Shown here piece by piece: positions 27,852 to 63,906 of a stretch of DNA of 64,000 bases. The translations under genes were made by a program, and so were the position numbers. Within the stretch, counting starts at the first letter, position 1. Every line of letters begins with the position of its first letter. The notes under the pieces are model-generated. The model was not told the origin of the DNA, ran no database searches, and saw nothing but the letters and a program-made list of their open reading frames with translations. The stretch lies in NCBI GenBank assembly GCA_903843285.1, contig CAIMPC010000016.1, positions 1,075 through 65,074 of the forward strand. The letters are read 5' to 3'. Source of the DNA: Candidatus Omnitrophota bacterium. GTDB lineage: Bacteria; Omnitrophota; Gorgyraeia; 2-01-FULL-45-10.

Positions 27852-28058
27852 CTTCTCCCCTTATGCGCTTAATAGACCAAAGTTAAAATGAAAAAGGCGC
27901 CCTGAGCACCGATAGTATGGCCTCAAAACGCCTTTGTTTTTTATAATGTAATCCTCTCTGAAACACTCGTCGATTATACCACGCGCCGGATGTGTGTCAA
28001 GGTTTTATAGAGCTCTCTTCATAGATTCACTTTACAGAAGAGCTTTGGGCAATTTCAT

Positions 28059-47517: not shown

Positions 47518-48425
47518 ATGAGCATCTGAAGAAACGCAAGCGGTGAAACTATTTTCCAGCAGAACTCAACCATTTGATCCATTCTGAATCTGGCGAATAT
47601 AGTGCGTGATAAGGATAGTATAGAGATGATAAATAGAAGCTTTCCCACATATAATAAAATTCCGAGCGCGGGTGTCAGTTGTAACCCAAACGGCAGATAG
47701 ACAGCGGATACCAGCGAGGCTCCGACGATAGTTTCGATATTGATTGAAAGCTTAAACATTGCCAATAATCTTCCGCTGTATTCGGTGAATGTGCCTCCGA
47801 CTATTTCTGTCTCGGCTTCGGGTATATCGAATGGCACCTTCTCTAATTTCCCCAGGAGGGCTATAAGGGATATCGCGAATCCTAAAAGATTGAACATCCA
47901 ATACCAGTGATGGTGGCTGTAAAATTTGGCCATTTCGCTAAGCGACCACGTGTTGGCCAGTAGCGCCGGAGCCAATATGCACATTAAAAGAGGTACCTCG
48001 TAAGCAAATAGCTGAGTAAGCGATCTGATGGCTCCGATCTTAGAGTAGAGAGACGTCGAGTACCATCCGCCCAAAAAATATGTGAGAGTCGGTATCGTCA
48101 GTAAATATATAGTTACGATGAGATCTCCATTGAATGAATATAGCGCATGTGTGCTCCATAATGGTATATAGAACGAAGCTGTTATGGTCGAAGTCAGCGC
48201 GAATATAGGCATCGCCCTAAACATTCTGGGATTAGCTTCCGTAGGTACCACGTCTTCCTTTGAAACGAGTTTAATAAAATCAGCCCATGGCTGAAACCAT
48301 GGCGGCCCTGTGCGGTTTTGCATCCTCGCATACAGCTTCCTATCTATAAACTCCGCTGACATGCCGGCTACGCCAAGAAAAATAATTCCGGGAAAAACCA
48401 GAAGATTAAATATACTGATTAACAT
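47484..48425 (-). CDS. NuoH/HycD/EchB-like membrane subunit
   Basis: 313 aa, 8-TM NuoH-family pattern. Confidence 0.75.
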   Translation of the reverse strand: MLISIFNLLVFPGIIFLGVAGMSAEFIDRKLYARMQNRTGPPWFQPWADFIKLVSKEDVVPTEANPRMFRAMPIFALTSTITASFYIPLWSTHALYSFNGDLIVTIYLLTIPTLTYFLGGWYSTSLYSKIGAIRSLTQLFAYEVPLLMCILAPALLANTWSLSEMAKFYSHHHWYWMFNLLGFAISLIALLGKLEKVPFDIPEAETEIVGGTFTEYSGRLLAMFKLSINIETIVGASLVSAVYLPFGLQLTPALGILLYVGKLLFIISILSLSRTIFARFRMDQMVEFCWKIVSPLAFLQMLICLILKGVLAI

Positions 48426-49646
48426 TTATAACCTTTCAGCAAGTTTTTTATTAATGGCGGAGAAGTCCATTCCTTTGGATCTGTGCCATTCGATACCATA
48501 CAAGCGGAGGTCTTCCCACTTCATACTGCCAAGAGTTTCGCTCTTAGAACTATTAACACTTATAAGCCTGTCTGTACAAGAGAAACACGGATCAATGGCG
48601 GCGATCACTATCGGAAGATCCGCAAGCTGGCCGTCTTCAAGCATCTTAGCGACAGTCTGTACGTTTGCTAAAGTCGGAGCCCTGACTTTTACTCTCTCGG
48701 GCTTGTCGGTACCGTTCGATTTCACATAATGGACATCTTCACCCCTGGGAGCTTCATAACGGCTGAAGGCCTCACCTACGGGTATCTTTCGGGGGGCTTT
48801 AACAGAAATGAGCCCTTCCGGCAGGTTCTTTATAGCCGTGCGTATCAGGCGGTATGACTCCATCAGCTCGCCCAATCTCACGAGCGTCCTGCCATAGACA
48901 TCGTTATGGTCGTCCGTCACTATCTTAAAATCAAGTTCGTCGTAAGCAGCATACGGATCATCGGCTCTGGTGTCCCTTGCGACATCAGAAGCGCGAGCGG
49001 TCGGACCCACGGCGCCCAGCGATAGCGCATCATTATGAGAGAGAACTCCCACGCCTGATAATCTCTGTATTAAAGTGGACTCTTCTTTACAGACCTGGAT
49101 GTAATATTTAGTCCTCTCTTCGAGTATATCTACAGATTTTAATATATCTGTTATGTGCTGTTTTTCAAGATCTCTCTTAACTCCTCCGATGAGGTTTATG
49201 CCATAGTTAACACGATTTCCGGTAAGCTCCGCGAGTATATCCATGACGACTTCGCGATCGCGCCATGTGTACATAAGCAGTGTGTCGAATCCTACTTCAT
49301 GTCCTGCAACACCCAGCCATAATAAATGGCTGTGTATTCTTTCGAGTTCGCCTATGATGGAGCGGATATAAAGAGCCCTCTTCGGAACCTGCAACCCGGC
49401 TATCTCCTCAACAGCCTGAACAAAGCATGTAGAATGGGTATGTGAACATATGCCGCATATGCGCTCAATAAGATAGACATCCTGCAGGTATGTTCTCTCC
49501 TCGCAGGCCTTTTCTATACCGCGATGATTGTACCCGAGCCGTGCGCTGAATGCCATTATTCTTTCACCGCTCAATGTAACGCTAAAGCTTTCCGGCTCTT
49601 TTAATGCAGGGTGCTGTGGGCCTATAGGTATTACTACTTTACGCAT
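48426..49646 (-). CDS. Group-4 [NiFe] hydrogenase large (catalytic) subunit, NuoD-like
   Basis: L1 motif ERICGICSHTH (RxCGxCxxxH) and C-terminal L2 motif DPCFSCTDR. The start is moved to the Met of MRKVVIPIGPQHP, which has an AAGGAGG RBS 8 nt upstream and a 1-nt gap to the nuoC-like stop. Confidence 0.85.
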   Translation of the reverse strand: MRKVVIPIGPQHPALKEPESFSVTLSGERIMAFSARLGYNHRGIEKACEERTYLQDVYLIERICGICSHTHSTCFVQAVEEIAGLQVPKRALYIRSIIGELERIHSHLLWLGVAGHEVGFDTLLMYTWRDREVVMDILAELTGNRVNYGINLIGGVKRDLEKQHITDILKSVDILEERTKYYIQVCKEESTLIQRLSGVGVLSHNDALSLGAVGPTARASDVARDTRADDPYAAYDELDFKIVTDDHNDVYGRTLVRLGELMESYRLIRTAIKNLPEGLISVKAPRKIPVGEAFSRYEAPRGEDVHYVKSNGTDKPERVKVRAPTLANVQTVAKMLEDGQLADLPIVIAAIDPCFSCTDRLISVNSSKSETLGSMKWEDLRLYGIEWHRSKGMDFSAINKKLAERL

Positions 49647-49647
49647 A

Positions 49648-50139
49648 TTATTTCGCCTCCTTAACCTGAGTTTCTGCAGTATCGATTTTCGCGCCCTTAG
49701 GCTTCCAATCCTTCCTGAGAGGATGTTCGCCTTTCGGCCAATCGTCGGGAAGCGGGTAACGGTTACCTTCCGGAAGCCCTTCAACCTTCACCCCCAGTAA
49801 ATCTTCCAGTTCCCGCTCATAAATATCTGCATTTGTAAAATATTGCAATATGGAATTAATTACGGGCTTGTCTTTGGGTACGGAGTACTTAAGGCTGAAA
49901 GTAATTCCGTCGGTGCGAGACATATGATATATGAAGCCGAGAGTAGAACCCTCGTCTAAGCCTGTTATCGTGCAGAGTACAGAAAATCCCAGATTATCCT
50001 TAGCATAAGCAAAGACTTGTTCGAATTTATCGGGTGTAACGTCGGCCACGACCCTTCTGATGCGCTGAACTTTAGCCTTATCCTGTAAAAGCGGAAACTC
50101 GCTCGTGAGGCTTTGGACTATTTCATCTTCTTTACTCAT
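49648..50139 (-). CDS. NuoC/EchD-like subunit
   Basis: NuoC-fold of about 160 aa. The start is moved to MSKEDEIV to avoid a 62-nt overlap with the nuoB-like gene. Confidence 0.65.
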   Translation of the reverse strand: MSKEDEIVQSLTSEFPLLQDKAKVQRIRRVVADVTPDKFEQVFAYAKDNLGFSVLCTITGLDEGSTLGFIYHMSRTDGITFSLKYSVPKDKPVINSILQYFTNADIYERELEDLLGVKVEGLPEGNRYPLPDDWPKGEHPLRKDWKPKGAKIDTAETQVKEAK

Positions 50140-50584
50140 CGGATTTCTTCTCGCTCTCTTCCAAACTTGCCAATAATTTAACGACACCATCAATTATAGC
50201 TTTAGGACTGGCCGGACATCCGGGTATATAGGCAGAGACAGGGATGACTGCATCTATCCCTGACTCAACACTGTAACATCCGTCAAATACTCCACCTGAG
50301 CATGAACAGCTCCCTACGGCTATTACAAACTTTGGCTCAGCCATCTGGTCGTATACTCTCTTTAACCGATCTCTCGTCTGTCTGGTAACGGGGCCGGAGC
50401 AGACCAGGACGTCGGCATGTTTAGGCGCGCCTTTAATCTGGATCCCGAAGCGCTCCACATCATACGTCGGCGTCAATGCGGCCACTATTTCAATATCACA
50501 TGCGTTACAGGCGCCGGTATTGAAATGGATTATCCATGGTGACTTTATCCTGGACCAGTTAACTATCTTATCAACGATATTCAT
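50132..50584 (-). CDS. Group-4 hydrogenase small subunit (NuoB-like, hydrogenase-type CxxC)
   Basis: 150 aa. GACNAC, the CxxC form used by hydrogenase small subunits rather than the CC of complex I, plus GSCSCSGG and PGCP cysteines. Confidence 0.8.
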   Translation of the reverse strand: MNIVDKIVNWSRIKSPWIIHFNTGACNACDIEIVAALTPTYDVERFGIQIKGAPKHADVLVCSGPVTRQTRDRLKRVYDQMAEPKFVIAVGSCSCSGGVFDGCYSVESGIDAVIPVSAYIPGCPASPKAIIDGVVKLLASLEESEKKSDE

Positions 50585-50585
50585 A

Positions 50586-50918
50586 TCATCTCCTGAAAAG
50601 AATGGTAAGCCCTGCGAGCGCGCCTGCGAGATATATTAATGCGATAGCAAAAGAGTTCATCGTTTCGACCGGAATCGTAGCTATGGTCAGCGCTACGACG
50701 TGCAGTACTGTAAATAGAAACGCAAACGGAAAGAATTGGCTATAGTCGGGTTGCATGAGATGCGTCTTTACGTCCTCACCGCAGGCGTAAGATGTCCCTA
50801 TATCGGCCGCGCGGTTCTTAGATCTGAACGAAATATTAGATAAGATTCCGGAAAAGAGCGAAACTATCGCCAATACTATTATGAAACATACCGGAGGTGT
50901 GAATATTATATTATTCAT
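50586..50918 (-). CDS. NuoA-like small membrane subunit
   Basis: 110 aa, 3 TM helices. YACGED resembles the YECG motif of NuoA/ND3. Confidence 0.5.
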   Translation of the reverse strand: MNNIIFTPPVCFIIVLAIVSLFSGILSNISFRSKNRAADIGTSYACGEDVKTHLMQPDYSQFFPFAFLFTVLHVVALTIATIPVETMNSFAIALIYLAGALAGLTILFRR

Positions 50919-50921
50919 CTG

Positions 50922-51260
50922 CTACCCCTTCAGCCTTTTAAGTCCTCGTATATCGAGATTATCGTTATATCTAAATGATCTTAATGCAATACCTCCGGCA
51001 ACAACGGCAACCACGACCTCTATGACTATTATAGTTATGACCATAGCCTGCGTCACCGAAGTACGGCCCGAGACATAACCTACCAGTATCATCAGAAGCG
51101 TAACTGCTTTTATCAGTAGCTCAAGGCCTATTATGGCGCGTATAATATTGCGAGAGACCAGCATGCAGTAAAGTCCGCAGACGAACGTCAAAATTATAAA
51201 GAAGCCGAATGTTAGAAATATTTGCCAGTAATCACCACTCATCTCTTCTTCTCTCCTCAA
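50922..51260 (-). CDS. NuoK/MrpC-like small membrane subunit
   Basis: About 105 aa, 3 TM helices. GLELLIKAV resembles the NuoK/MrpC signature. The first 6 codons are probably an artefact, with the start at MSGDYW. Confidence 0.6.
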   Translation of the reverse strand: MRREEEMSGDYWQIFLTFGFFIILTFVCGLYCMLVSRNIIRAIIGLELLIKAVTLLMILVGYVSGRTSVTQAMVITIIVIEVVVAVVAGGIALRSFRYNDNLDIRGLKRLKG

Positions 51261-51741
51261 ATAGTATTACGACCCCCAGGGCTCCTATGATGACTACTAT
51301 TATCTGCCCCAACATATCGAGTTGGCGCATATCCCACATTACGCGCCTCACATCAAGCTCGGGTGTCGTTACCGGTGGGATTATTATATTATTTCGAATC
51401 CTTATAAACGTGAGCGCAATACTAATTACGATCAATAATATGGGAAGATAGCCAAATCTCTTATTTCTCTCTTTTGATAACTCCACAATCTCTTTATTCG
51501 TAAGAGGTTTAGTAAGGCTTATCGTGCTGACAAATACGACGGTTATCAGGCCGGTACAGACGGAGAGCTCGAATACCGCTGCCAGAGGCGAGTTTAATCT
51601 AAACATAAGAATGGTTACGACGGCGCTGGTAAGTGCGAGGCCTATCGTCGCCTTAAGCAGACTTCTGCCCATTACCGTCCAAAGAACCGCGATAAGCATA
51701 ACCAGTAGAAGTAGCGTATTTATAGAGATATGAGAGATCAC
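51232..51741 (-). CDS. NuoJ/MrpB-like membrane subunit
   Basis: 169 aa, 5 TM helices. The AAVFELSVCTGLITVVFVS pattern resembles NuoJ. Confidence 0.45.
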   Translation of the reverse strand: MISHISINTLLLLVMLIAVLWTVMGRSLLKATIGLALTSAVVTILMFRLNSPLAAVFELSVCTGLITVVFVSTISLTKPLTNKEIVELSKERNKRFGYLPILLIVISIALTFIRIRNNIIIPPVTTPELDVRRVMWDMRQLDMLGQIIVVIIGALGVVILFEERRRDEW

Positions 51742-53168
51742 CTAATTATAAGCTCCTGTATTGGCGCTATGAATTTATTGAATACTAACGGGAAAAATAC
51801 GCCTGAGCCGATTATTATTACCGCGAGCATGATCGATGCAGTCGAGATACCTATTCTGGCCTCGTCGATATTCTCGTTCTCAATGGATAGCTTTCCGAAG
51901 AATACTTTTCTTTGCATAATTAGCAGATAAGCCAAAGTGATTACACTGGCCATTATCGCTATAAAAGAATATGTTTTACTGCCGGATTGCCATAACGCTA
52001 CTATTATCATTAGCTTTGACCAGAATCCCGCTAAAGGCGGCACTCCTGCGGCCGAAAGCATACCTATTACCGACGTTGTGCCGGTTATGGGCATTTTGGA
52101 TGATAGCCCACCCATCTTATTCATATCCGTGGTGCCGAGCCTCGTCTCAACCGCGGCCGAATTCACAAATAGAAGCGACTTAAATATGGAGTGATTAAAG
52201 ATGTGGAATATAGCGCCTGCGATACCCAGGAAGGTTCCACAGCCGAAACCTAAAATAATATAGCCGACCTGGCTTATGCTTGAATACGCGAGCATCCTCT
52301 TCATATCATTTTGTCCGATGGCGGCCAATGCTCCAAATACTATCGATAATGCTCCCAGGGCCAAAAGAATGGTTTTCAGGGACGGATCGAAGCCAAATAC
52401 TGCGATTAGCAGACGTATAAGAGTGTATATGCCCACCGTCTTTGTCACTATTCCACCCAGTAGCACAGAAACAGCGGCCGGCGCTGAGCTATAAGCATCC
52501 GGCACCCATGCATGAAACGGCACCAACCCTCCTTTTATGGCAAGTCCGCATACGAATAGACCGATCGCAAATAGTATAATGTTATTGTTCGCTAAATTCA
52601 GGGCTTGCCTTATGGCTTCGAACGATGTACTGCCTGAAACCATAAATAGAAGCGCGATCGATGTGAGCAGCATTATAGTGGCTATTGCGGAGAGTATCAA
52701 ATATTTAAAGGATCCCTCGATTGCATTCCTATCTTTTTCTAACGCTATCAGAACAAATGACGCCAGTGCGGTTATTTCGAGGAATATATAAAGAGTGAAA
52801 ATGTCTTTCACTAATACTATTCCATTCATCCCTATTGACGTTATGATAAGCAGATTCACGAACTTGAAGAGCTCTTTCTCGTCATAAATAGTATGGCGGG
52901 CCACGAGCAAGCTCGCTATTGAGACTATTCCGATACAGAGAAGCATGATGAAGCTAATTTGATCCATAGAGAGGCTGACTTTAAAGAATGTATCGATTTG
53001 CTTCATTTCGACATTCCATAACACGGGATGGCGGCAGGCGGCCAACAGTATCTGGCTAATGAAAATAAGGAGAGCGAACCAGAATGCAAGCCTTCTCGCC
53101 GGGGCTCTGGCGGACAGGTTCAGGATCACTATTCCTATGAGCGGAACCAATATAAGTAATGATAACAT
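51738..53168 (-). CDS. Antiporter-like subunit (NuoN/MrpD family)
   Basis: 476 aa, about 14 TM helices, proton-antiporter family pattern. Confidence 0.75.
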   Translation of the reverse strand: MLSLLILVPLIGIVILNLSARAPARRLAFWFALLIFISQILLAACRHPVLWNVEMKQIDTFFKVSLSMDQISFIMLLCIGIVSIASLLVARHTIYDEKELFKFVNLLIITSIGMNGIVLVKDIFTLYIFLEITALASFVLIALEKDRNAIEGSFKYLILSAIATIMLLTSIALLFMVSGSTSFEAIRQALNLANNNIILFAIGLFVCGLAIKGGLVPFHAWVPDAYSSAPAAVSVLLGGIVTKTVGIYTLIRLLIAVFGFDPSLKTILLALGALSIVFGALAAIGQNDMKRMLAYSSISQVGYIILGFGCGTFLGIAGAIFHIFNHSIFKSLLFVNSAAVETRLGTTDMNKMGGLSSKMPITGTTSVIGMLSAAGVPPLAGFWSKLMIIVALWQSGSKTYSFIAIMASVITLAYLLIMQRKVFFGKLSIENENIDEARIGISTASIMLAVIIIGSGVFFPLVFNKFIAPIQELIIR

Positions 53169-53183
53169 ATGTTCGACCAGCCT

Positions 53184-55004
53184 TTATTTTAATAATAGCG
53201 ATATTACTACCGCGGTTGCTACTAATGACCAAATAATATACGTCTTAACGCTTCCATCGTGCAAGCCTCGTATTATGGCTGATGCGTAATCAGTTATCGT
53301 TGGGATGAAAGAATCATATATCCAATTTGTAGCCTTATCGCACGTACTCAGGCAGTAAGCAAAAATGGTCGTTGCCCCCATCCCTATATTATAAGGATCG
53401 AGCACTCCTCTTTCAGCCTTATCGTAAACTGTGCTCAGTATTGGGGCATGGTGAATATGATCTACAGCCTTAAGTCCACTGCCCGTGCGTTTTACGCCAT
53501 ACATATGATTAAGCACAGCGGCAATAAGAACTGCTATTGTTACCCATACTATCGTGGTATTTGTGGGCCAGCCGGCGAAGTTATAATCCTCAAGCCTTGA
53601 TCCTAAGATCGGCTGGATCAAATATTTTAATGGAATCGAGTTCCATAATCCGAATATAACGCACAGGGATGCGATCGTTATCATAGGCGCTAACATTGAT
53701 ATGGGCGCCTCTTTAACATCTTCCCTATTTGCCCTACCCATAAACGCCGCATGGCCAAGCTTTAAGAACGAAGCCGCCGTTAGGAACGACCCGAGCACAG
53801 CCGCAATATAGAATATCATACCTCTTTCCAGGGCGCCATCATATATAAGCTCTTTAGAGAAAAACCCGTTGAATGGCGGTACTCCTGATATCGAAGCAGC
53901 CGTTATGATAAAACATATAAATGTAATCGGCATCATTCTGCCCAGTCCACCCAGCTTCTCCAGGTCTGTAGTTCCGGCCTGTTTTTCAACGGAGCCCCCG
54001 GTCAAGAATAAACAACTCTTATACATGGCATGGTTGATCATATGGAATAATCCGCCAACTATTCCGATAGGCACGAGCGTTCCGATGCCAAGTATCATAT
54101 ACCCTACCTGACTTATGGCGTGATAAGACAATAATCTCTTATAATCCTTCTGTATTAATGCCATCAGAACCGCGCCCAATATCGTGATGGCTCCGACCGT
54201 CATAAGCGTATAACTAGCCCATGAATTATGAGAAAGTTTAAACATGTCCAGAGATATTCTAGCCAGTAAATATATGCCCAACAACTTTTCAAGAGCGGCC
54301 GGCAATATGGCCATAAAAGGTAAATGGGCGTCAAGCGCGGCGTCCGGTATCCACGTGTGGAATGGCATTGATCCGGCCTTAGCAATCGCGCCAATAACCA
54401 TTAATATGAATGCCAGACCGCCTATACCACCAACTCCAATACATATATTTGACATCGTAAATGTTCCTGCAATATGGCCGCAGATCGCAATGCCTGCCAT
54501 CAAACATAGATCGCTGATGCCGACGATGATAAAGGCCTTAGTAGCTGTCTTATAAGCGGCCTTATTTCCTATTGCTATCATTCCCCACAGCGTAACAAGT
54601 AAGGCCTCCCAAAAGAATAGCATAAGGACGAGATTGTTCGACAATACTGCGCCATTGACCAGAGATAGTGAAATCAGGAGGAGGCCGAAAAAGATGCCGG
54701 AATTAGATTTCTCGCGCATGAACGCCACGGAATACAGAGTGATCAGAAATCCAAATCCCGCAGATGCCAGGATTATAAAGGCGCTGAATTGGTATAGCCT
54801 GAGCGAAAACTCAAAACCGAAGCTTGCCCAAGGCACCGTGAAAGAAAAATTACTCTTAAATATCATGGCTGTGGCCACCAGATTGGCAAACGTGACTAGT
54901 AATGCTGTTATATCCTTAGGCCATTTGGAATTGCGGAGGAAAATTAATACCACAGATCCGGCGAGAAGCGGGACAAATATCAGTGAAAGTAGAATATTTT
55001 CCAT
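53184..55004 (-). CDS. Antiporter-like subunit (NuoL/MrpA family)
   Basis: 606 aa, the longest of the three, as is typical for NuoL/MrpA. Confidence 0.75.
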   Translation of the reverse strand: MENILLSLIFVPLLAGSVVLIFLRNSKWPKDITALLVTFANLVATAMIFKSNFSFTVPWASFGFEFSLRLYQFSAFIILASAGFGFLITLYSVAFMREKSNSGIFFGLLLISLSLVNGAVLSNNLVLMLFFWEALLVTLWGMIAIGNKAAYKTATKAFIIVGISDLCLMAGIAICGHIAGTFTMSNICIGVGGIGGLAFILMVIGAIAKAGSMPFHTWIPDAALDAHLPFMAILPAALEKLLGIYLLARISLDMFKLSHNSWASYTLMTVGAITILGAVLMALIQKDYKRLLSYHAISQVGYMILGIGTLVPIGIVGGLFHMINHAMYKSCLFLTGGSVEKQAGTTDLEKLGGLGRMMPITFICFIITAASISGVPPFNGFFSKELIYDGALERGMIFYIAAVLGSFLTAASFLKLGHAAFMGRANREDVKEAPISMLAPMITIASLCVIFGLWNSIPLKYLIQPILGSRLEDYNFAGWPTNTTIVWVTIAVLIAAVLNHMYGVKRTGSGLKAVDHIHHAPILSTVYDKAERGVLDPYNIGMGATTIFAYCLSTCDKATNWIYDSFIPTITDYASAIIRGLHDGSVKTYIIWSLVATAVVISLLLK

Positions 55005-55008
55005 AACT

Positions 55009-56445
55009 TTATATACCCAACATCTGCTTAAGCGTTATCTGAACGTATGCGGCCGGATAGCTTATCCAGATGCCTCCAGCCAGCGAAAGGATCCCTAATA
55101 TTGCTACACTGGCCACCATTACGCGCGAGCCTTCGGCCTCTGAATGCGCCTTCTCTTCACCCATGAAGATCATGTTGAATAGTCTGAATAGATATATGAT
55201 CGTAAGGAATGCGCCAACGAGAAAGACCATAGCTATCCATACGTTTTGATTAAATGCGCCTGACATTACCATATATTTAGAGAAGAACCCTCCGAACGGG
55301 GGTACACCCATTACCGACAATGCACAGAACAGGAACGAGATGGCGGTTATTGGCATAGAGGCTAATAGCCCCCCCATTTTAGTAATGTCTTTAGTGCGTG
55401 TTCCGTGCTCTATTATTCCGGCACACAGAAAAAGTCCGCCTTTTGCTATGCCATGCATTAATATATATAGGAGGGCGCCCGCTATACCTATGTTACCTCC
55501 AACAGCAAGACCGAGGAATATAAAAGCTATCTGACTGATGGTCGAATACGCTATTATTCTCTTCATGTCGGTTTCGATTAATGCGGCGCCTGCAGAGATT
55601 AGCGCGCTGGCGGAGGCAATGATCGGTACGACCGTGTGCCATATAGCGGCTATTGGAAGCGTCATGACGAAAAGCCTGGCAAATACATAAACTCCTATTT
55701 TTACCAGGACGGCGGCGTGAAGCAGTGCTGTCACGGGCGATGGCGCAACGCCGGCATCGGGTAGCCACGTATGAAACGGAAGAGTTGCCGACTTCGAAAG
55801 TATCCCCAGCAGTATAAGGAGGACTATCCAGTTGGATATCGGGTTTACTCCGAAATATCCCTTTATGACGGCCAGATCGAATGATCCGGTCTCGGCATAT
55901 AGCAATATGAAGCCAAATAACATTGCCAGGGCGCCAAAGATAGTAACCATAAACGCTTTATCAGCCTTAATAACATGCTGTTTCTCCCTGAAAAAGCCTA
56001 TAAGGCGCCAGCTTGCTATAGCGGTTATCTCCCAGAATATATATAGAAGGATTAGATTTGAGGAGAAGACGAGTCCCATCATCGCGCCTATGAATAAGAC
56101 TACCATCGTATAGTATTCATTTCGATTGGGATAATGACTTATATATCCGAAAGAATACATCGTGATGATGACGCTAATAAACGATGAGACTATTGCCATG
56201 AAGACGGATAAAGGATCTGCAGTTAATACGAAGTTAAATCCGAGCGGACCGGCTAAGGCTACGGTTATCGTCTGTCCGGACAATACCGTAGGCACAAGCA
56301 TAGCCGAGGCCACAAGCGATGCTAATACGAATATTAGCGCCAGCGCGTTTCTTAAGTGCTCGGAAATCCTCCCTATAGCGGGCAGTGTGAATGCGCCCAT
56401 TACGGGCACAAAGACTGCAGCTAATAGCAGTCCACTATTATTCAT
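55009..56445 (-). CDS. Antiporter-like subunit (NuoM/MrpD family)
   Basis: 478 aa. Its ATG overlaps the hppA stop by 8 nt (CATGAATAA). Confidence 0.75.
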   Translation of the reverse strand: MNNSGLLLAAVFVPVMGAFTLPAIGRISEHLRNALALIFVLASLVASAMLVPTVLSGQTITVALAGPLGFNFVLTADPLSVFMAIVSSFISVIITMYSFGYISHYPNRNEYYTMVVLFIGAMMGLVFSSNLILLYIFWEITAIASWRLIGFFREKQHVIKADKAFMVTIFGALAMLFGFILLYAETGSFDLAVIKGYFGVNPISNWIVLLILLGILSKSATLPFHTWLPDAGVAPSPVTALLHAAVLVKIGVYVFARLFVMTLPIAAIWHTVVPIIASASALISAGAALIETDMKRIIAYSTISQIAFIFLGLAVGGNIGIAGALLYILMHGIAKGGLFLCAGIIEHGTRTKDITKMGGLLASMPITAISFLFCALSVMGVPPFGGFFSKYMVMSGAFNQNVWIAMVFLVGAFLTIIYLFRLFNMIFMGEEKAHSEAEGSRVMVASVAILGILSLAGGIWISYPAAYVQITLKQMLGI

Positions 56446-58786
56446 GACAAGCTGTGTCTGTAGTTGATGGTGCTGCCTCGGGTACTGGTCTCTTACTCTG
56501 CCATATAGCCCATATAAGCACCAGGCAGATTAAAGAGATTACAACCCACGCCTTAAAACCAAGATGATTGTATTGAACTACTATAGGCGCAATAATAACC
56601 GATACCAGATTAACTACCTTAATCATCGGATTAAGCGCAGGACCCGCAGTATCTTTAAGAGGGTCTCCGACCGTGTCACCTACGACGCCTGCCTTATGCC
56701 TCTCGGAACCCTTGCCGGTGTTAAGACAAACATCCTTAACCTCATCCTCGATTGTTTTCTTACAGTTATCCCAGGCGCCGCCTGCGTTCGACATGAATAC
56801 GGCTAAAAGCTGCCCTGAAAGTATTATTCCGGCCAGGAATCCGCCGAGGGCTTCTACCTGCAATACTGTACCTACCAATATCGGTGTTACTATGCAAATT
56901 ATAGCCAGACTTATCAGCTCTTTCTGAGCCGCTACAGTCGAAATGGCAACAGCCTGCCTATAGTCCGGCTTTACCTTACCTTCCAGCACACCCAATTTAA
57001 ACTGTCTTCTCACCTCTTCTACTATCAGCGCTGCAGCGCGGCTGACAGCCTGGATAGAGAACGCTGAGAATAACCATGGAAGCGCGCCCCCTATAAGCAT
57101 TCCTATAAATACCTGGGGCACTGAGACCCTTATACCTATCGATGATAATCTTTCCGCAAGAGGGACCCCCATTGCCATCTGAACTCTGCTCACATCGACC
57201 ATGTATGATCCAAATAGCGCTACGGCGGCTATGACAGCCGATCCTATCGCGACACCTTTAGTAATGGCTTTAGTCGTGTTCCCCACACCATCGAGATCGG
57301 CCATTATTCGTCTGGCATCGAGCGTCTCTTTGTCGGTCTGACCGTGCCATGCCATCTCGCCTATTCCATTTGCATTGTCGGCTATCGGTCCGAATGAATC
57401 CATGGCTACGTTATTGCCCGTAAGCGTTAGCATACCTATTCCCGTCATTGCTACTCCATAGAGTATATATGCTATTCTCTCAGTGCCTCCAACACCGGGC
57501 ATCGTCCCAAATATCATAATTGAACTGAATATCGTGGCCGATATCAATAATATGGACCATACCGATGATTCATAACCGACCGCTATTCCGGATAATATAG
57601 TGGTTGCGGCGCCGGTTTTTGTAGATTTTCGTATTTCTCTGACAGGCGCGCCTTCAGTTCCGGTAAAATATTCAGTGAGCCTGTCGATCATGATAGCTAA
57701 CAATACTCCGACTGCGGTAGCCAAAAATGGCCTCCACCAGCCGCCCGGCACCTTATTCATATACAGGAAGGCAAGAATACCGAATAAGACGACAGAGATC
57801 GCGGCCGACGTCAGGAACCCCTTGAATATGGCCTTCATTGCGTTTCCCTTTTTCTCGTTAGGGTCGCTTTTAACGGCATACGTACCTACGATTGAACAGA
57901 GCACGCCTATTCCGCGAACGAGTAGCGGATAGACTATCCACTCAAGCCTATGGGTTATATGGTATAACGCAAGACCTAGTATTAGCCCCGCAACGATAGT
58001 GACCTCGTATGATTCAAATATGTCAGCTGCCATTCCGGCGCAATCACCAACATTGTCACCGACCAGATCTGCTACGACTGCGGGGTTGCGCGGATCATCT
58101 TCAGGTATGTTATGCTCTACTTTTCCTACCAGATCCGCTCCTACGTCTGCGGCCTTTGTATAGATGCCTCCACCGACTCTCATAAAGAGCGCCAAAAGAG
58201 TTCCACCGAAGCCAAATCCTAACAGCGCATCCGGAGCGGCAATCCCGAATATAATAAATATTATCGTGCCGCCGAATAGGCCCAAGCCATCGGTCAGCAT
58301 ACCCGTTACGGTGCCGGCCCTATAAGCGATCCTGAGAGCATCCGCAAAAGACTTTTTTGCAGCCTGAGCCACGCGTACGTTGGCCTGAACTGCCATGCGC
58401 ATGCCAAGCTGTCCTACTAATAGGGAGAATATAGCGCCCATGATGAAGGCAAGCGCTCTGCCTATACCGATTATGAAACGGACTTGCGATTCGGACTGTC
58501 CGGCAAACCTCTGCATGGCTTCCACAGACGGAGGTACCACATAGACTGAGAGGAAGAGCGCAAACGTAAGTACACCTATAAGGGGCAGGATAGTGACTAA
58601 CTGTTTTTTTAAATATGTGTCGGCGCCCTCGCGGATCGCATTCCATACCTCTATCATCTTTGGAGAACCTTTATCCTCGGCAAGTATCTCTTTACGTAAG
58701 AAAAGCGCGTAGAGTAACCCAATGACTGATATCCCGAGAACGCCCCAAATTGCAAACTGTTCAAATACCGTAAGTCCGTAAACCAC
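56438..58786 (-). CDS. hppA: Membrane-bound H+-translocating pyrophosphatase, K+-independent type
   Basis: 782 aa, 16 TM helices. DVGADLVGKVE, DNVGDCAGMAAD and VGNTTKAITKG motifs. The Lys in GNTTKA is the established determinant of K+ independence. GTG start with a GGGGGG SD. Confidence 0.9.
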   Translation of the reverse strand: MVYGLTVFEQFAIWGVLGISVIGLLYALFLRKEILAEDKGSPKMIEVWNAIREGADTYLKKQLVTILPLIGVLTFALFLSVYVVPPSVEAMQRFAGQSESQVRFIIGIGRALAFIMGAIFSLLVGQLGMRMAVQANVRVAQAAKKSFADALRIAYRAGTVTGMLTDGLGLFGGTIIFIIFGIAAPDALLGFGFGGTLLALFMRVGGGIYTKAADVGADLVGKVEHNIPEDDPRNPAVVADLVGDNVGDCAGMAADIFESYEVTIVAGLILGLALYHITHRLEWIVYPLLVRGIGVLCSIVGTYAVKSDPNEKKGNAMKAIFKGFLTSAAISVVLFGILAFLYMNKVPGGWWRPFLATAVGVLLAIMIDRLTEYFTGTEGAPVREIRKSTKTGAATTILSGIAVGYESSVWSILLISATIFSSIMIFGTMPGVGGTERIAYILYGVAMTGIGMLTLTGNNVAMDSFGPIADNANGIGEMAWHGQTDKETLDARRIMADLDGVGNTTKAITKGVAIGSAVIAAVALFGSYMVDVSRVQMAMGVPLAERLSSIGIRVSVPQVFIGMLIGGALPWLFSAFSIQAVSRAAALIVEEVRRQFKLGVLEGKVKPDYRQAVAISTVAAQKELISLAIICIVTPILVGTVLQVEALGGFLAGIILSGQLLAVFMSNAGGAWDNCKKTIEDEVKDVCLNTGKGSERHKAGVVGDTVGDPLKDTAGPALNPMIKVVNLVSVIIAPIVVQYNHLGFKAWVVISLICLVLIWAIWQSKRPVPEAAPSTTDTACHE

Positions 58787-58804
58787 TTTATCCCCCCATT
58801 TTTT

Positions 58805-58846
58805 ATAATAAAAAAACAGCCCTGCCTCATTGTTGCGAGGCGGGCT
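58805..58846 (-). terminator. Intrinsic terminator / attenuator hairpin about 20 nt upstream of the hppA start codon
   Basis: On the minus-strand RNA, GCCCGCCUC-gcaacaau-GAGGCAGGGC forms a 9-bp stem with one bulge, followed by UGUUUUUUUAUUAU. The complementary strand has the A tract before the stem, so the element is strand-specific. Confidence 0.5.
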
Positions 58847-59251
58847 TCATCGTCCTAATGCTTTACTTATAAACCTCATTCAACTTTAAAACAAAGACCC
58901 ATATATTTAAAGAACACTGTAAAATCATAGCAAACTATTAAGGCTATTTCAATAAAAATCTTACGCCAAGATGGGAATGGGAAGATACATCGTACCCCCA
59001 CCCTTCTTTGCGCTACCAGAGTCCAAGAGCGATCACCTCTTAAGGTCACCGGTGCGCAAAAAGCCGCTTTCTCCAGGGGCCCGTGAGACTCGGGTCGAGC
59101 CAATGTCCCGTACCTGAGCGATGATGGTGAGTGATTTATGTGTGTGGCGAAGTGTGGGCGGGTGAAGGTTATTGGCGAGGGGAGATTTGGATTACGTGTT
59201 ATGACTTACTGGGGTGGCTCCGAGAGAAACGTCTAAAATACTTCTATCTTG

Positions 59252-59284
59252 AAGGGTGGCACCTGTGAGCATGGCACTTATTTA
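59252..59284. repeat. 33-nt conserved motif, copy 1 (gaagggtggcaCCTGTGAGCATGGCACTtattt), in the hppA leader
   Basis: 28/33 identical to copy 2, in direct orientation, with a 17-nt perfect core. Confidence 0.7.
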
Positions 59285-59301
59285 TACAATCACGGTATTC
59301 T

Positions 59302-60159
59302 CTAATTGATCGCGACGATAATCCACGAGTGCGTATTATGCAATAAAGAGGTATTAATTTCCAAACCCAAAATATTAAAAGCACCCGGGAGTACCCCTTT
59401 TTTAGTCTCTGGGCTTACCCCTTTAGGGAGCACCATTTCATCAAAGCTTAGGTTCTGCGAAACTATTACACCGACATTGTTGGATGATAGTCGTTCATTC
59501 CATAACTTTTTATTATTCGAGTAAGGAACTAACGCATTCTCGAAAATGCAGAATTTATTAAAATTATTGGTTAAAAGAGACCTGATTTCATTATAGGAAA
59601 AACCGTGATTATCTAGCATTTCCGTATTGGGCGTTCCTATAATGATAATGCCACCTTCTTTTGTGACCCTCTTCAATTCTTTAATAGCGCAGTCTTCTTT
59701 TTGATACTCCTTGATGTGCTCTAACACTTCGCTGCATATAGTCACATCGAAATAATGACTTTCGTAGCTTTTCAAATCCGTTATGCCCTGGATGCTAAAT
59801 TCTGCATACTTACCATATCTGGCTTGCGCAAATTCTATGCTTGGCTTTGATATGTCTGCGCCATATACAAGTGCAGCATTTGATTCTTTGATAATCTGGC
59901 ATCCGTATCCTGAGCCGCATCCTATATCAGACACAACTTTGTTTTTTACAAACTGTGCAGCAAACTTATAGAATTTACAATGATTGGTAAAATTTATAAT
60001 ATCATCCTTAGTTGCTTTCTTATGTCTGCCATATTTATCAAAATTTATACCATCCGGATACACCCTGATGAAGTCCTCATAATAATAAGTGTGATTCTTC
60101 CGGCTTATGTAATGCAATATTGAATCCCGTAGCTTATTTATTACTTTCTTAATTTTCAT
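59302..60159 (-). CDS. Class I SAM-dependent methyltransferase
   Basis: 285 aa. Motif I DIGCGSGYG, motif post-I and acidic residues. Confidence 0.65.
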   Translation of the reverse strand: MKIKKVINKLRDSILHYISRKNHTYYYEDFIRVYPDGINFDKYGRHKKATKDDIINFTNHCKFYKFAAQFVKNKVVSDIGCGSGYGCQIIKESNAALVYGADISKPSIEFAQARYGKYAEFSIQGITDLKSYESHYFDVTICSEVLEHIKEYQKEDCAIKELKRVTKEGGIIIIGTPNTEMLDNHGFSYNEIRSLLTNNFNKFCIFENALVPYSNNKKLWNERLSSNNVGVIVSQNLSFDEMVLPKGVSPETKKGVLPGAFNILGLEINTSLLHNTHSWIIVAIN

Positions 60160-60175
60160 AACCCGCTATTCCTAC

Positions 60176-60865
60176 TTATGCTTTGTAGACTAGCAATGCC
60201 TTGCGGCGAGGACAATATCTGTTTTCGAGAAAATAGATATCCTGATATAGGCGTGAAATATTTGCTTTATCTCCGATCATTGCAAGTACCCAAAACATAA
60301 GATTGTCTAAATTGACCTCTTTGATCGTCTTGAGCGCGCTGACTTGACTACACTTTGTCAGCATAGTTCGTATATGATCGAAATCGACCAACCCGTGTTC
60401 GCAATGATCTTTTATGTAACCGCTTGTGGGCAGATACTGTAGTACCAGAGCCTCGGCACGTCTATTTTCTTCGGTATCAATAGGCGCAATGATAAATACT
60501 GCTGTCTTTGCAAGTCGTATCAACTCGTTAACGACATCGTCGCGCATAACTCGAGGAATATGTTCGAGGGTATCGATACAACAAACTATATCGAATGATC
60601 TATCGTCGAGAGGAATCTTGTGAGCACTCGCTGTAATATCGGCATCACCGGATACATTGAGCGTCGTAACGTTTTCGATACCAAACTGTTTAAGAATGTT
60701 ATTAGATTTAATCCCGCCGACATCAAGGACACTACATCCATGAATACCCAGTGCCTTTATCTCCTGCGCGATTAGATTAACGCGGTTATAGTACTCCCAG
60801 TAATGCCCCTCCGGCTTTTTCTCTTTACCGAATAATTTTCTTAACTTTTTCCTTAAGGATGCCAT
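60176..60865 (-). CDS. Class I SAM-dependent methyltransferase
   Basis: 229 aa. VLDVGG glycine-rich motif I. Confidence 0.55.
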   Translation of the reverse strand: MASLRKKLRKLFGKEKKPEGHYWEYYNRVNLIAQEIKALGIHGCSVLDVGGIKSNNILKQFGIENVTTLNVSGDADITASAHKIPLDDRSFDIVCCIDTLEHIPRVMRDDVVNELIRLAKTAVFIIAPIDTEENRRAEALVLQYLPTSGYIKDHCEHGLVDFDHIRTMLTKCSQVSALKTIKEVNLDNLMFWVLAMIGDKANISRLYQDIYFLENRYCPRRKALLVYKA

Positions 60866-60868
60866 ACG

Positions 60869-61825
60869 TTACCTCCAGCTCATAGGTGTTTTTATACAAG
60901 ACTCACATATTGGGGATTTTATTTTAAGGACGTCCCTGATCCTATGGTTAAGTATACTCCCCATAAAATAATTTGATCCATAGACGCCACAACAGCGCAC
61001 CAGATCTCCATTAAAACTAACCACAATAATGCTTCTTCGGTATTGACACTTATCTGCCCGTTTCGCAGTCTTCATCGCTGCCAATTCACGATTAATATCA
61101 ATGAACTGGCTGTAATGTTTTAACATTCGATCTTTTTGCTGATGAAATAGTATATTTTCTTCAACGCTTGAAATATACATTGGGAGTAGCGTAAAAGAGA
61201 GCCTATGGTTTGCGCAGAATTGCTTGACCTCGATCGCTTCATTTTTATTATAAATGAGGTCGTGAAATCCTATACCGATCTCGACATCTTTAAGATTTCG
61301 CTTACTCTTAATACGTGCAAGTTTTATAATATTTTCAAGCACGTCCTTAATGCTCCCGCCAATATGGTTTTTGGAATACGTTTCTTGTTTCATACCAGAA
61401 ATCGATACTCTGATGCGGCTAACGCCTGACTGTAGTAACTCATCCGGATTTATAAGACAGGTGAGATTGCTGCTTATACCGATTGAACCGGCTCTCCCCA
61501 TGTATTTTGGCGACCATTCCTTCTTTGCATATCTAATCATTTTTGGTAAGTCGGGGTTCAAAAGCGGCTCTCCCCAATTTCCAAATTCAAGCTCTCGGAT
61601 CCCCACCTGTTCTTTCTTAAATTTATCGATAATCTTTTTGAAAATATCGAATGACATTAAACCTTTTGCTTCATTCTTTAAACCACTCACCCCACCCCGA
61701 GGACAAAGAGCGCATCGCAAGTTACAATGCGAAACGTCCACGAGTAGTTTTAGCTCCTCACGGTGGCATAATCGTTTTAACCTATATATATGTTTCTGTA
61801 TCTTTAGCATAGATATTAAATCCAT
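60869..61825 (-). CDS. Radical SAM protein with a Cys-rich C-terminal (SPASM/twitch-like) region
   Basis: CNLRCALC (Cx3Cx2C). C-terminal CCGVYGS...CESC. The start is set at MDLISML (61825). The longer ORF to 61906 would translate through the repeated motif. Confidence 0.5.
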   Translation of the reverse strand: MDLISMLKIQKHIYRLKRLCHREELKLLVDVSHCNLRCALCPRGGVSGLKNEAKGLMSFDIFKKIIDKFKKEQVGIRELEFGNWGEPLLNPDLPKMIRYAKKEWSPKYMGRAGSIGISSNLTCLINPDELLQSGVSRIRVSISGMKQETYSKNHIGGSIKDVLENIIKLARIKSKRNLKDVEIGIGFHDLIYNKNEAIEVKQFCANHRLSFTLLPMYISSVEENILFHQQKDRMLKHYSQFIDINRELAAMKTAKRADKCQYRRSIIVVSFNGDLVRCCGVYGSNYFMGSILNHRIRDVLKIKSPICESCIKTPMSWR

Positions 61826-61834
61826 TAATATTCT

Positions 61835-61867
61835 GGAGTGTGGTGCCTGTGAGCATGGCACTGATTT
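61835..61867. repeat. 33-nt conserved motif, copy 2 (ggagtgtggtgCCTGTGAGCATGGCACTgattt)
   Basis: Same orientation as copy 1. Contains the inverted repeat GTGCC-N9-GGCAC. Confidence 0.7.
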
Positions 61868-61909
61868 CTGCTTACCTATAGACTTAAATAGGTAGGATTG
61901 TGTCATTAA

Positions 61910-62854
61910 TTAAATTAGGCGAACGGTAACTTTGCCATTTTTGATATTGTAAACTACACCGTCGACAGCAACTACCTGCCCCTTATCTATTTCTCTGAGT
62001 CTTGATTCTGCGGTATCGTAACCGGCAGTGCTTCCTGGATATTTGTATTTTTTAATTACTTCATTATAAATTGCTTTTGCTTTTTCAATATCACCTTTTG
62101 CAAGATAAGTATCGCCAATAAATATTTCTGCATAACATTCTGCGATAGAAAATGGAAACTCTTTAGCCATTTTCTGGTATGTCTCAACAGCTTTATCATA
62201 ATCTTTGAATATAATCTTATACATCTTACCTATAGATTGGAATGTCTCGTTAAAAAGACGATATTCGTCGTGGTCATCCAAAATCTTCAAATCAGGTAAA
62301 TAGTCTAATATTTTCAAATATTCATCTAATTGTTTTTTATATTCTTTCTTATCGCGATAGCATGCCGCGATTGCCCTCTGAACCCTGATGACATACGCAT
62401 ACTCTTCTATTTTTATTCTTTCTCTTGAGACGCCAGCCTTTTCGGGATATTCCTTATTAAAATACTTGCGCTTAAATCCCTCGAGTTCGTTTCTATAAGC
62501 ATTTAGCGCCTTATCATATTTTTGCAGATACCAATAAGAATCTCCCAGCCCTCGCCATACATCGGCTTCCTCTACTGCTCTTGCTCCATCCATTCTGAAC
62601 AAACGCTCGTAGCTTTTTGCCGCACGCGTCCATGCTGGTTTTTTAAATATGAGCCTTGAAAATTCTCCAACAATTATGTTCGGCGCATAAAAAAATATAG
62701 CCTCTCCGGCATTTGAGGCGGCATCATATTGCTCATTAGCATATTTCTTTTGCTCGTCATAGGTCGCAAACCTTGGTGTGTATATTAAACTAACCATGAA
62801 TACGCTTATGACGGTCGCCAGAAGTGCTACTATAGTTATAAGTATTTTCTTCAT
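61910..62854 (-). CDS. TPR-repeat protein with an N-terminal signal/anchor
   Basis: 314 aa. N-terminal hydrophobic segment, then multiple 34-aa repeats with W-LG-Y / A-F-A-P patterning. Confidence 0.55.
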   Translation of the reverse strand: MKKILITIVALLATVISVFMVSLIYTPRFATYDEQKKYANEQYDAASNAGEAIFFYAPNIIVGEFSRLIFKKPAWTRAAKSYERLFRMDGARAVEEADVWRGLGDSYWYLQKYDKALNAYRNELEGFKRKYFNKEYPEKAGVSRERIKIEEYAYVIRVQRAIAACYRDKKEYKKQLDEYLKILDYLPDLKILDDHDEYRLFNETFQSIGKMYKIIFKDYDKAVETYQKMAKEFPFSIAECYAEIFIGDTYLAKGDIEKAKAIYNEVIKKYKYPGSTAGYDTAESRLREIDKGQVVAVDGVVYNIKNGKVTVRLI

Positions 62855-62865
62855 ATGATTACATT

Positions 62866-63906
62866 CTAATTGAAAATCCCATTCTCTTCAACTATTTTCA
62901 GCATCCGAGGATCTTTCCACATCGCTCCATGCGGCACTAACGTAACAACATCTTTAATTTTAGGAAATATGCTCTTCAATTCGCCTGTTACCGGCCGCGG
63001 CCCGGCTAAGTCATTTAGAACGCCGCTAATGAGCGTGCCACCGAACACCTGCGAACTGCCGATAGTAACACTGCTGGCAATCGCGGCACCTCGTGCTAAG
63101 TTTAAGGCATCTACTGGATTATAAATATTTACGATATTCGTTACATTCGCAAATGCGTAATTATTCGGATTGACAATCCCTTTGTCAATAAAATATTTAA
63201 GCGGCGAGCCCATCATATATAGGTTGCGTACTTTAATTTCTGGTCTTTCAGCCGCTAATTCCTTTAGAGCTTCATACGTTACTACGGTACCTAAGCTGTG
63301 CGCTGCTAAATCTATCGGGATACCTGATCGCTGAGATTCTTCCCATCCAGCCTTAATATCATTTTTAACTTGTTCTATTATGATTCGCCTTTTTGCAGGA
63401 TCAAATATATACTCCTCTATCCCAGAACCTTTTATTGGACTATCAGGACCCGGCTTGTTATAACTATTGGCAATAAGTTTGAAATTTTCACCTTTTATTT
63501 GTATCTTCTCTACATAGCTTGCCCAGCCATCCGGATGTTTTGTGGCACCATGCACACCAACTAGTACAAATTTTGGTGCATGTATTTCGTCTACTAGCGC
63601 CTGATACTGCGCAAGTTCATCTAAAGTGGGAATATCACCATAATCCCAGGGATTAAGCATGGAGTCAAATTTCAATGTGGCATAGGTATAAAGATTGCTC
63701 TTCTCGATATCAGTCATCGACATGGTCAAATAATCGAGCTCACTGCCATATTTCATCTGGAATTTCATATCTGATAGTATAATCGACTTTAAATATACAT
63801 CATATGCTGATGAGCCAAATATGTCTGATCCAGAAAGCCTATAATCCATATCGCTGAATTTACTCTCTAAATAATCGACAGCATTATCAAAATTATTCTT
63901 ATTCAC
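62866..63906 (-). CDS. Alpha/beta-hydrolase (lipase/esterase-like) protein
   Basis: 346 aa. AAHSLGT nucleophile elbow (AxSxG variant). Downstream Asp/His candidates. Confidence 0.45.
   Translation of the reverse strand: MNKNNFDNAVDYLESKFSDMDYRLSGSDIFGSSAYDVYLKSIILSDMKFQMKYGSELDYLTMSMTDIEKSNLYTYATLKFDSMLNPWDYGDIPTLDELAQYQALVDEIHAPKFVLVGVHGATKHPDGWASYVEKIQIKGENFKLIANSYNKPGPDSPIKGSGIEEYIFDPAKRRIIIEQVKNDIKAGWEESQRSGIPIDLAAHSLGTVVTYEALKELAAERPEIKVRNLYMMGSPLKYFIDKGIVNPNNYAFANVTNIVNIYNPVDALNLARGAAIASSVTIGSSQVFGGTLISGVLNDLAGPRPVTGELKSIFPKIKDVVTLVPHGAMWKDPRMLKIVEENGIFN

Follow-up and report, generated by a model that had tools for sequence, protein, structure and literature searches.

The Na+-I riboswitch (DUF1646 motif) is described as an ON switch in which an aptamer stem is set against an intrinsic terminator, with a terminated product of ~100 nt (PMC9337991). 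It is found with sodium and ion-energetics genes, and no pyrophosphatase association is listed for it (PMC9337991). A second described system, the ANTAR target RNA, consists of two mini-hairpins with A1/G4 hexaloops joined by a 5-12-nt linker, the second of which overlaps the 5' base of a terminator (PMC3369931). Here, these systems are compared with the region preceding hppA in 64,000 nucleotides of a Candidatus Omnitrophota bacterium genome (contig CAIMPC010000016.1; the whole stretch is referred to as the window). The region is a gap of 515 nt (58787-59301) bounded by the stop codon of a SAM-methyltransferase gene and the GTG start codon of hppA, both on the minus strand. The hppA family is annotated as Na+-translocating pyrophosphatase in the source names of the database records. 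A first-pass annotation had described the entire gap as a single non-coding hppA leader that ends in an attenuator-like terminator.

Our results showed that the gap is composite. It is made up of ~345 nt of unconserved distal sequence (59301-58956) and a ~170-nt hppA control region (58952-58787). The sequence anatomy of the gap, its conservation and its recurrence across relatives are direct observations. On balance, it is rather probable that the distal portion is 3' sequence of the upstream operon and that the proximal portion, comprising the hppA promoter, a leader and a terminator, would work as an attenuator.

Relatives of the locus were obtained by a protein search followed by contig look-up. 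A homologous upstream region was identified in five of them, namely L164 and L165 (hppA 92% identical), L163 (91%), L167, which equals L081 (87%), and L172 (86%). In the window, the predicted hppA promoter has a -35 element TTGAAA (58952-58947), a 17-nt spacer and an extended -10 element TGcTATGAT (58932-58924), and transcription is predicted to start near 58917. The TTGAA of the -35 element and the pattern TG.TAT..T were invariant in the six loci (alignment A1) with variable flanks, and the same promoter element is present in L164, L081 and L172. The blastn similarity between the window and its closest relative, L164, extended from inside hppA to the -10 element at 58932 and then stopped; the corresponding limits were 58868 for L165 and 58848 for L163. 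The intergenic gaps of the relatives measure only ~175-240 nt, and their upstream gene encodes an amino-acid permease, a 652-aa protein without a recorded domain match, or a GltD-like oxidoreductase. Given the promoter invariance, the similarity limit, the short gaps and the different upstream genes, the conserved unit at hppA comprises ~170 nt (58952-58787). Conservation in relatives, which the first-pass annotation had proposed as a test, was observed for the 3' third of the gap, while the upstream ~345 nt is conserved nowhere; no similarity upstream of the promoter was detected in 160 hppA loci.

These observations bear directly on whether the whole 515 nt could form one structured 5' leader or riboswitch whose promoter would lie around 59301 or farther upstream. 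Transcripts reading through from the methyltransferase operon could provide such an RNA, and the region has no ORF (open reading frame). Nevertheless, the idea is very improbable. The folding of the 515 nt was no better than that of shuffled sequences on either strand (z = 0.02 and -0.48), for which reason one large structured RNA was rejected, and the part at 59090-59301 was less structured than its shuffles. In no relative is there conserved sequence upstream of 58952, and relatives with the same leader have shorter gaps and other upstream genes. The conserved promoter at 58952-58924 lies inside the supposed leader, and with it the leader shrinks to ~130 nt when counted to the GTG, or ~108 nt when counted to the U-tract. 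The repeat copy and the skewed block that had been brought forward as features of the leader both fall within the unconserved upstream ~345 nt.

The gap was also searched for known RNAs and for coding remnants. The covariance models of Rfam 15 were run on the region at E <= 10, on the window at gathering score and on the loci of nine relatives. No Rfam family reached the gathering score in the window, in agreement with the earlier statement that no known riboswitch or housekeeping RNA could be recognised, and the scan of 58500-59600 at E <= 10 returned nothing but two chance-level matches. Likewise, ARAGORN identified no tRNA or tmRNA gene across the whole window. The absence of a credible ORF was confirmed: no gene is called in the identical public contig L161, and the ORFs of the gap (26-75 aa) are without Pfam match, all four small ORFs having been searched. 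No pseudogene signal was found in the gap. With tblastn, the permease and GltD-like proteins encoded next to hppA in relatives had no match in the gap, and all five proteins of the upstream cluster gave noise only. A decayed gene in the distal part was rejected, since tblastn and Pfam gave nothing and the six-frame translations are full of stops. The strong purine skew that had been claimed for the plus strand does not describe the region, as the minus strand comprises A 27 / C 23 / G 22 / T 28%. The related claim of a C/U-rich RNA holds only as a C>G skew confined to ~59090-59230 and fails for the region overall.

The strong hairpin with a U tract that had been noted before the hppA GTG was recovered as AGCCCGCCUCG-CAACAA-UGAGGCAGGGCU, followed by G and U7. 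At -17.5 to -18.6 kcal/mol (z = -4.03), its fold was equalled by none of 200 shuffles. The segment 58846-58810 has the G+C-rich stem-loop and following U-tract of an intrinsic terminator, at which the 3' ends are predicted to lie. The distance to the GTG, given earlier as ~20 nt, is 23 nt from the end of the U-tract and 31 nt from the end of the hairpin. In our own scan, no other compact terminator on the minus strand of the 64-kb window ranked above the hairpin at 58846-58818; a simple consensus terminator scan misses it because of its bulge. Very few strong terminators were found in the window, and among them is a bidirectional intrinsic terminator-like hairpin at 27893-27935 with T-runs on both strands (-13.4 and -19.3 kcal/mol).

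Leaders homologous to that of the window were identified in L163, L164, L165, L167 and L172. In the model-fitted alignment, 88.5% of the terminator cells were paired, compared with 35-70% when the partners were slid, and two pairs had changed on both sides in a compensatory manner. Conservation is concentrated in the last ~60 nt of the leader, which comprises a G-rich box, 5-6 nt, the hairpin AGCCCGCCUCGCAA...GAGGCAGGGCU and T7. The 5' ~55 nt is poorly conserved or unalignable among the six leaders, those of the window, L163, L172 and L167 being unalignable. A profile hidden Markov model (HMM) and a covariance model of the conserved block, run on 175 loci, gave significant scores exactly for these loci and the window; the only other matches of the covariance model were three with E = 0.15-0.87. 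Searches for the box and terminator arm elsewhere in the window, and with these models in the 175 loci, gave hppA leaders only. A regulon of this element was dropped as a candidate, since the matches lie in hppA leaders only.

The recurrence of leader terminators was assessed by scanning the 180 nt upstream of hppA in all loci with enough sequence for a sense hairpin with a T-run at <= -8 kcal/mol. A terminator was present in 13 of the 20 distinct upstream regions of the Omnitrophota-type group (>= 76% identity), which includes a few records labelled Chloroflexota or Patescibacteria; the antisense count was 1/20. The frequency was 20/69 in the group with 60-76% identity (antisense 4/69) and 1/31 below 60% identity. 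Upstream of the terminator, a promoter scoring 10-12/12 was present in 11 of the 13 Omnitrophota-type cases. A terminator between the promoter and the hppA ribosome-binding site (RBS), as the first-pass annotation had it, is the arrangement of the window, and relatives have kept it in sequence (5 loci) or in architecture (13/20). In Elusimicrobia, the order is reversed, with the promoter-like site downstream of or overlapping the terminator in the five loci where one was found. A few Anaerolineales have the order promoter, small hairpin, ribosome-binding site.

A second type of hppA leader was identified in six loci (L001, L003, L082, L085, L166 and L170), which share UAAGAC-N3-7-GUCUU. In all of them except L170, the 5' arm runs on into GUCUUCUAG-loop-CUAGAAGAC-U-run. 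The terminator 3' arm ends in the same sequence as the upstream AAGAC. When the leaders were cut and folded, the small AAGAC/GUCUU hairpin formed in 6/6 loci, and in five of them it competes with the GUCUUCUAG...CUAGAAGAC terminator; L170 has the small hairpin only. The logic of this second type is the same as that of the window's leader type, with a different sequence. Most of the six loci have a further long hairpin, mostly with a U-run, whose 5' arm is anti-Shine-Dalgarno-like (GCCUCCUU) and whose 3' arm is GGGAGGC. A compensatory A-U to G-C change was seen in the first stem of L166. In one Omnitrophota lineage (L002, ~5610-6000, and L123, 3610-4000), hppA has no leader and lies ~15 nt after a stand-alone response-regulator receiver gene, which suggests a different control strategy for hppA there.

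The 23 nt separating the U-tract from the GTG leaves no room for a further promoter, and the AT-rich TATTAT found there in the window has no -35 partner. With no promoter downstream, every transcript of hppA and its ~11-kb Mrp/Mbh-like operon must read through the terminator, which has an efficient look. By prediction, the locus therefore has the layout of an attenuator, that is, a promoter, a terminator and a coding start with no promoter between the last two. In the mechanism that we propose as the most economical one, the sigma70-type promoter (58952-58924) would start a leader of ~108 nt that ends in the strong intrinsic terminator (58846-58810). By default, the terminator would form, a short leader RNA would be released and the operon would be off. 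Under some condition, the upstream G-rich segment (the box AGCAGGUUGGAGC in relatives) may capture the C-rich 5' arm and loop base of the terminator to give an antiterminator, and RNA polymerase would then read into hppA. In no leader does the modelled antiterminator reach the stability of the terminator, and relief would therefore depend on a stabilising factor or on kinetics; candidates are an RNA-binding protein, a small ligand or ion, and the kinetics of the polymerase.

The antiterminator is, at its present stage, a reasonable hypothesis from modelling and not a finding. Each leader was cut just before the 3' arm of the terminator and then folded. In 5/5 relatives, the box formed a bulged 10-bp hairpin with the terminator 5' arm and the two loop bases next to it, with energies of -8.6 to -13.0 kcal/mol, against -13.5 to -20.7 kcal/mol for the terminators. 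Of the antiterminator cells, 89.5% were paired, compared with 26-44% when slid. Loop bases are normally free to vary. The GC at the base of the terminator loop is nevertheless the same in the six leaders, and its modelled partner is an invariant GC at the start of the box.

Several points weigh against a regulated attenuator. The segment of 17-19 nt upstream is G-rich, and its shuffled versions paired as well or better in 1-36% of trials; the window itself gave p = 0.36. The box of the window has three substitutions, and its pairing reaches only -5.3 kcal/mol as opposed to -19 for the terminator. A long-range alternative in the cut-leader fold of the window has no comparative support. No covariation was detected in the antiterminator, because the box hardly varies. 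Furthermore, this leader type is represented by six sequences, all from close relatives, and its conservation could partly reflect a short divergence time. In 7/20 of the Omnitrophota-type loci there is no leader terminator, and such a terminator is therefore not obligatory. A sensor was not found, whether as an Rfam match, a conserved aptamer-like 5' half, a leader peptide or an ANTAR dual hairpin. The transcription start, termination, antiterminator and conditional read-through are all inferred from sequence.

Part of this evidence would also suit an ordinary unregulated terminator, which either ends upstream read-through or acts as a fixed leaky valve for constant low hppA expression, with no antiterminator and no signal. 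The failed shuffle test and lacking covariation of the antiterminator, the degenerate box of the window and the lack of a sensor element all favour such a terminator, and in L163 and L164 the hairpin is the sole terminator between the permease gene and hppA. It is nonetheless an unlikely, if serious, explanation. In the window and in 11/13 related loci, the hairpin is preceded and not followed by the conserved promoter, and the 23 nt from the U-tract to the GTG leaves no promoter room. Transcripts of the upstream operon could end at a separate hairpin with a U-rich tail, located before the promoter. Conservation is seen in the box and the loop-base GC, not in the rest of the leader, and a block of -18 kcal/mol with U7 that offered no means of relief would be a costly thing to place before a central energy operon.

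The same promoter, leader and terminator could instead constitute an independent gene for a trans-acting small RNA of ~108 nt, with incidental read-through into hppA. In favour of such a gene, the unit has its own predicted promoter and a strong terminator, and relatives have kept it as a block. However, the block always lies directly before hppA on the same strand, and hppA is without another promoter. The 5' ~55 nt, where the seed site of a small RNA would be expected, is unconserved even in close relatives, and searches of the window and the 175 loci gave neither a further copy nor a target-like match. We regard this alternative as having a slim chance.

Comparison with known regulatory RNAs places the hppA leader close to attenuators with factor-stabilised antiterminators. 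The shared features are a promoter, a short leader and a terminator just before the ribosome-binding site, together with an upstream segment that, in the folds, can pair with the terminator 5' arm and a predicted antiterminator that is the weaker structure, so that the default would be off. The Na+-I riboswitch is the closest functional analogue, with which the hppA leader shares a terminator-type platform and sodium-energetics genes. It differs in its two-hairpin P1/P2 layout, whose conserved P1-base and P2-loop nucleotides are not seen in hppA leaders; there is no sequence or structure link between the two. The Rfam families gave no match in the leaders of the window and nine relatives. A riboswitch aptamer is not apparent, as the 5' ~55 nt of the leader is unalignable and only the ~60 nt of box and terminator is conserved. 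The unconserved 5' half argues against a sizeable ligand-binding aptamer, and a very small aptamer within the antiterminator hairpin is possible.

In contrast to the ANTAR target RNA, these leaders have one hairpin only, and manual inspection, made with no model search, revealed no first hairpin upstream. The A1/G4 hexaloop is present in 3/6 leaders (L163, L165 and L172), not in that of the window, and is without a known cognate protein. With the first hairpin missing and the loop pattern in 3/6 leaders, an ANTAR target was rejected. A leader peptide was rejected as well: an AUG or UUG follows the box in 4/6 leaders, only 2-3 nt past a GGA and in differing frames, and two of the six leaders have no start codon. 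CsrA-type GGA sites gave no consistent fit. It is doubtful, with a small chance of being true, that the ~60-nt box and terminator represent the expression platform and minimal sensor of an undescribed class of riboswitch or factor-dependent antiterminator, with the AAGAC/GUCUUCUAG leader as its second form. If true, transcription of the operon of the Na+-pyrophosphatase and an Mbh/Mbx-like module would respond, through the new class, to a bioenergetic signal, for instance Na+, pyrophosphate, nucleotide level or redox state.

The distal ~345 nt (59301-58956) is probably, judging from its composition and folding, the 3' end of the methyltransferase/radical-SAM operon. Long, untranslated RNA with C>G skew and little structure is the typical look of a Rho-loading site. 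The block at 59090-59230 resembles such a rut site, as it provides the C-rich, G-poor, unstructured and untranslated RNA of at least ~80 nt that is usual for one; its Rho dependence is our inference. Its C>G skew ranks first among 6386 windows of 140 nt in the 64 kb (~4.8 standard deviations above the mean), and it is less structured than shuffles (z = +0.86 to +1.0). With Rho-dependent terminators it shares ~140 nt of untranslated RNA after a stop codon, a content of C 39% / G 14% and structure below shuffles; the block is not conserved in relatives. To our knowledge, no rut consensus exists for scoring candidates.

Two hairpins lie between this block and the promoter. The second is a candidate non-canonical terminator of the methyltransferase/radical-SAM operon, with a stem at 58963-59013 (-22 kcal/mol) and a tail AAGAUUUUUAUU that overlaps or abuts the -35 element; both terminator scans overlooked it because of the 4 nt between its stem and U-run. 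The C-rich unstructured stretch and the two hairpins suggest that the upstream operon transcript would end here. Homologues of the methyltransferase (L173-L175; 75-78% protein identity) show ~78% DNA identity that ends exactly at the stop codon, and they are located in unrelated neighbourhoods. With similarity limited to the coding sequence and unrelated contexts, a conserved 3' untranslated region or non-coding RNA of the methyltransferase gene was rejected.

The distal 345 nt (58956-59301) could also hold a separate functional element, for example a small RNA peculiar to the strain, a gene for a small protein or the scar of a mobile element. This is quite unlikely. In its favour, a significant repeat of 39 nt is shared with the region upstream of the radical-SAM gene, the two hairpins have z-scores of about -2, the upstream gene order differs from that of relatives, and the public contig L162 breaks at ~59001. 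Against it, the sequence is mostly unstructured and has neither conservation nor an Rfam or Pfam match, and no further repeats or flanking inverted repeat around it were found in the window.

The repeat copy reported in the gap was confirmed. The two copies share 82% identity across 39 nt (E = 3e-5 by blastn within the window), and none of 100 shuffles contained their 22-nt core. Copy 1 contains a small hairpin, GUGCC-N9-GGUGC, and the core of the repeat reads GUGCC-AUGCUCACA-GGYRC. Where the copies differ by CA/UG, the hairpin is kept through G-U pairs on the minus-strand RNA only. The repeat is outside the hppA leader and may serve as a binding site for a protein or as an RNA element internal to the operon. 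As a peptide gene it was rejected, because the two small ORFs beginning MLTG(A/T)TLQ share only their first 9 codons and 11 upstream bases and have no RBS, and copy 2 overlaps the radical-SAM start. As a sigma-54 promoter it was also rejected: the plus-strand TGGCAC-N-GC has a spacing one base short of the consensus, with nothing downstream on that strand. The longest ORF of the radical-SAM gene (60869-61906, minus, 345 aa) has its CxxxCxxC at residues 60-67 and probably starts too early. A start at M28 (ATG 61825) gives the usual CxxxCxxC spacing and places copy 2 in a gap of ~85 nt after the TPR gene; one public gene call has a shorter radical-SAM product of 262 aa.

The features of the gap and its borders are collected in Table 1.

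Table 1. Positions of the features in and around the gap upstream of hppA, numbered along the window; promoter, leader and terminator entries are predictions.
Feature	Position	Strand	Remarks
hppA	56438-58786	minus	PF03030, E = 4.5e-237; GTG start
Shine-Dalgarno GGGGGGA and GTG	58797-58791; 58786-58784	minus	relatives: AAGGAGG, then GTG or ATG
U7 tract	58810..58816	minus	followed by AUUAU-A6; T7 invariant in six leaders
Terminator hairpin	58818..58846	minus	11 bp, one bulged A, 6-nt loop
Leader RNA	58806..58917	minus	~108-112 nt, from predicted start to U-tract end; -28.4 kcal/mol, z = -2.14
G-rich box counterpart AGCAUUAGGACG	58851..58862	minus	12-13-nt box AGCAGGUUGGAGC in relatives; window copy diverged mid-box
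hppA promoter, sigma70-type	58924..58952	minus	TTGAAA-17-TGcTATGAT, 10/12 matches + TG
Second hairpin with tail AAGAUUUUUAUU	58951..59013	minus	z = -2.39, 2/200 shuffles as good
First GC-rich hairpin	59005..59062	minus	segment 58950-59090: z = -2.04, 8/200 shuffles as good
C-rich, G-poor unstructured stretch	59090..59230	minus	C 39% / G 14%
Repeat copy 1	59245..59283	minus	18 nt after methyltransferase stop
SAM-methyltransferase gene	59302-60159	minus	directly upstream of gap
Repeat copy 2	61829-61867	minus	4 nt upstream of probable true radical-SAM start

The gene hppA stands at the head of a same-strand run of ~11 kb that reaches 47484, the downstream part covering 47484-56445, and it overlaps the next gene by 8 nt. 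It is followed by genes for three Mrp/NuoL-type antiporter subunits, for MbhD-, NuoK-, NuoA-, NuoB-, NuoC- and NuoD/NiFe-type subunits and for NuoH. The run (47484-58786, minus) is a membrane pyrophosphatase with an Mbh/Mbx-type energy-converting module, and its linkage of hppA to antiporter genes is kept in L163, L164, L167 and L169-L172. The best species-level hppA matches are Omnitrophota metagenome-assembled genomes with 82-85% amino-acid identity. In the public contigs L161 and L162, both the hppA protein and the intergenic region are identical to the window; L162 belongs to the same genome and ends at ~59001.

Upstream of the gap, the same-strand cluster encodes the SAM-methyltransferase, a second methyltransferase, a radical-SAM protein, a TPR protein and an unknown protein, with spacings of 3-16 nt. 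This cluster (59302-63906), whose radical-SAM protein has a Cys-rich C-terminus, occupies the slot that an amino-acid permease and/or a GltD-like oxidoreductase takes upstream of hppA in relatives (L163, L164, L171 and L172). Homologues of the methyltransferase in other Omnitrophota adjoin RHS-toxin and toxin-antitoxin genes. The segment 59302-63906 looks like a variable island with its boundary at the hppA promoter.

Omnitrophota is an uncultured phylum, and we know of no work on its gene regulation. The literature searched contains no paper that connects a riboswitch or a leader attenuator with hppA or with Omnitrophota. The element is real, though smaller and of a more ordinary kind than first proposed: a predicted lineage-specific leader terminator, and a probable attenuator, before the hppA-Mbh/Mrp-type operon of some Omnitrophota, which is undescribed in Rfam and the literature searched. 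What had been annotated as a long leader is corrected to a predicted promoter, a probable attenuator and an unrelated spacer. The alignment and covariance model can serve as a seed for locating the element in other genomes. The hppA operon is likely central to the energy conservation of Omnitrophota, and the conserved leader terminator provides a concrete, testable control point for it and may lead to the physiological signal by which the operon is turned on.

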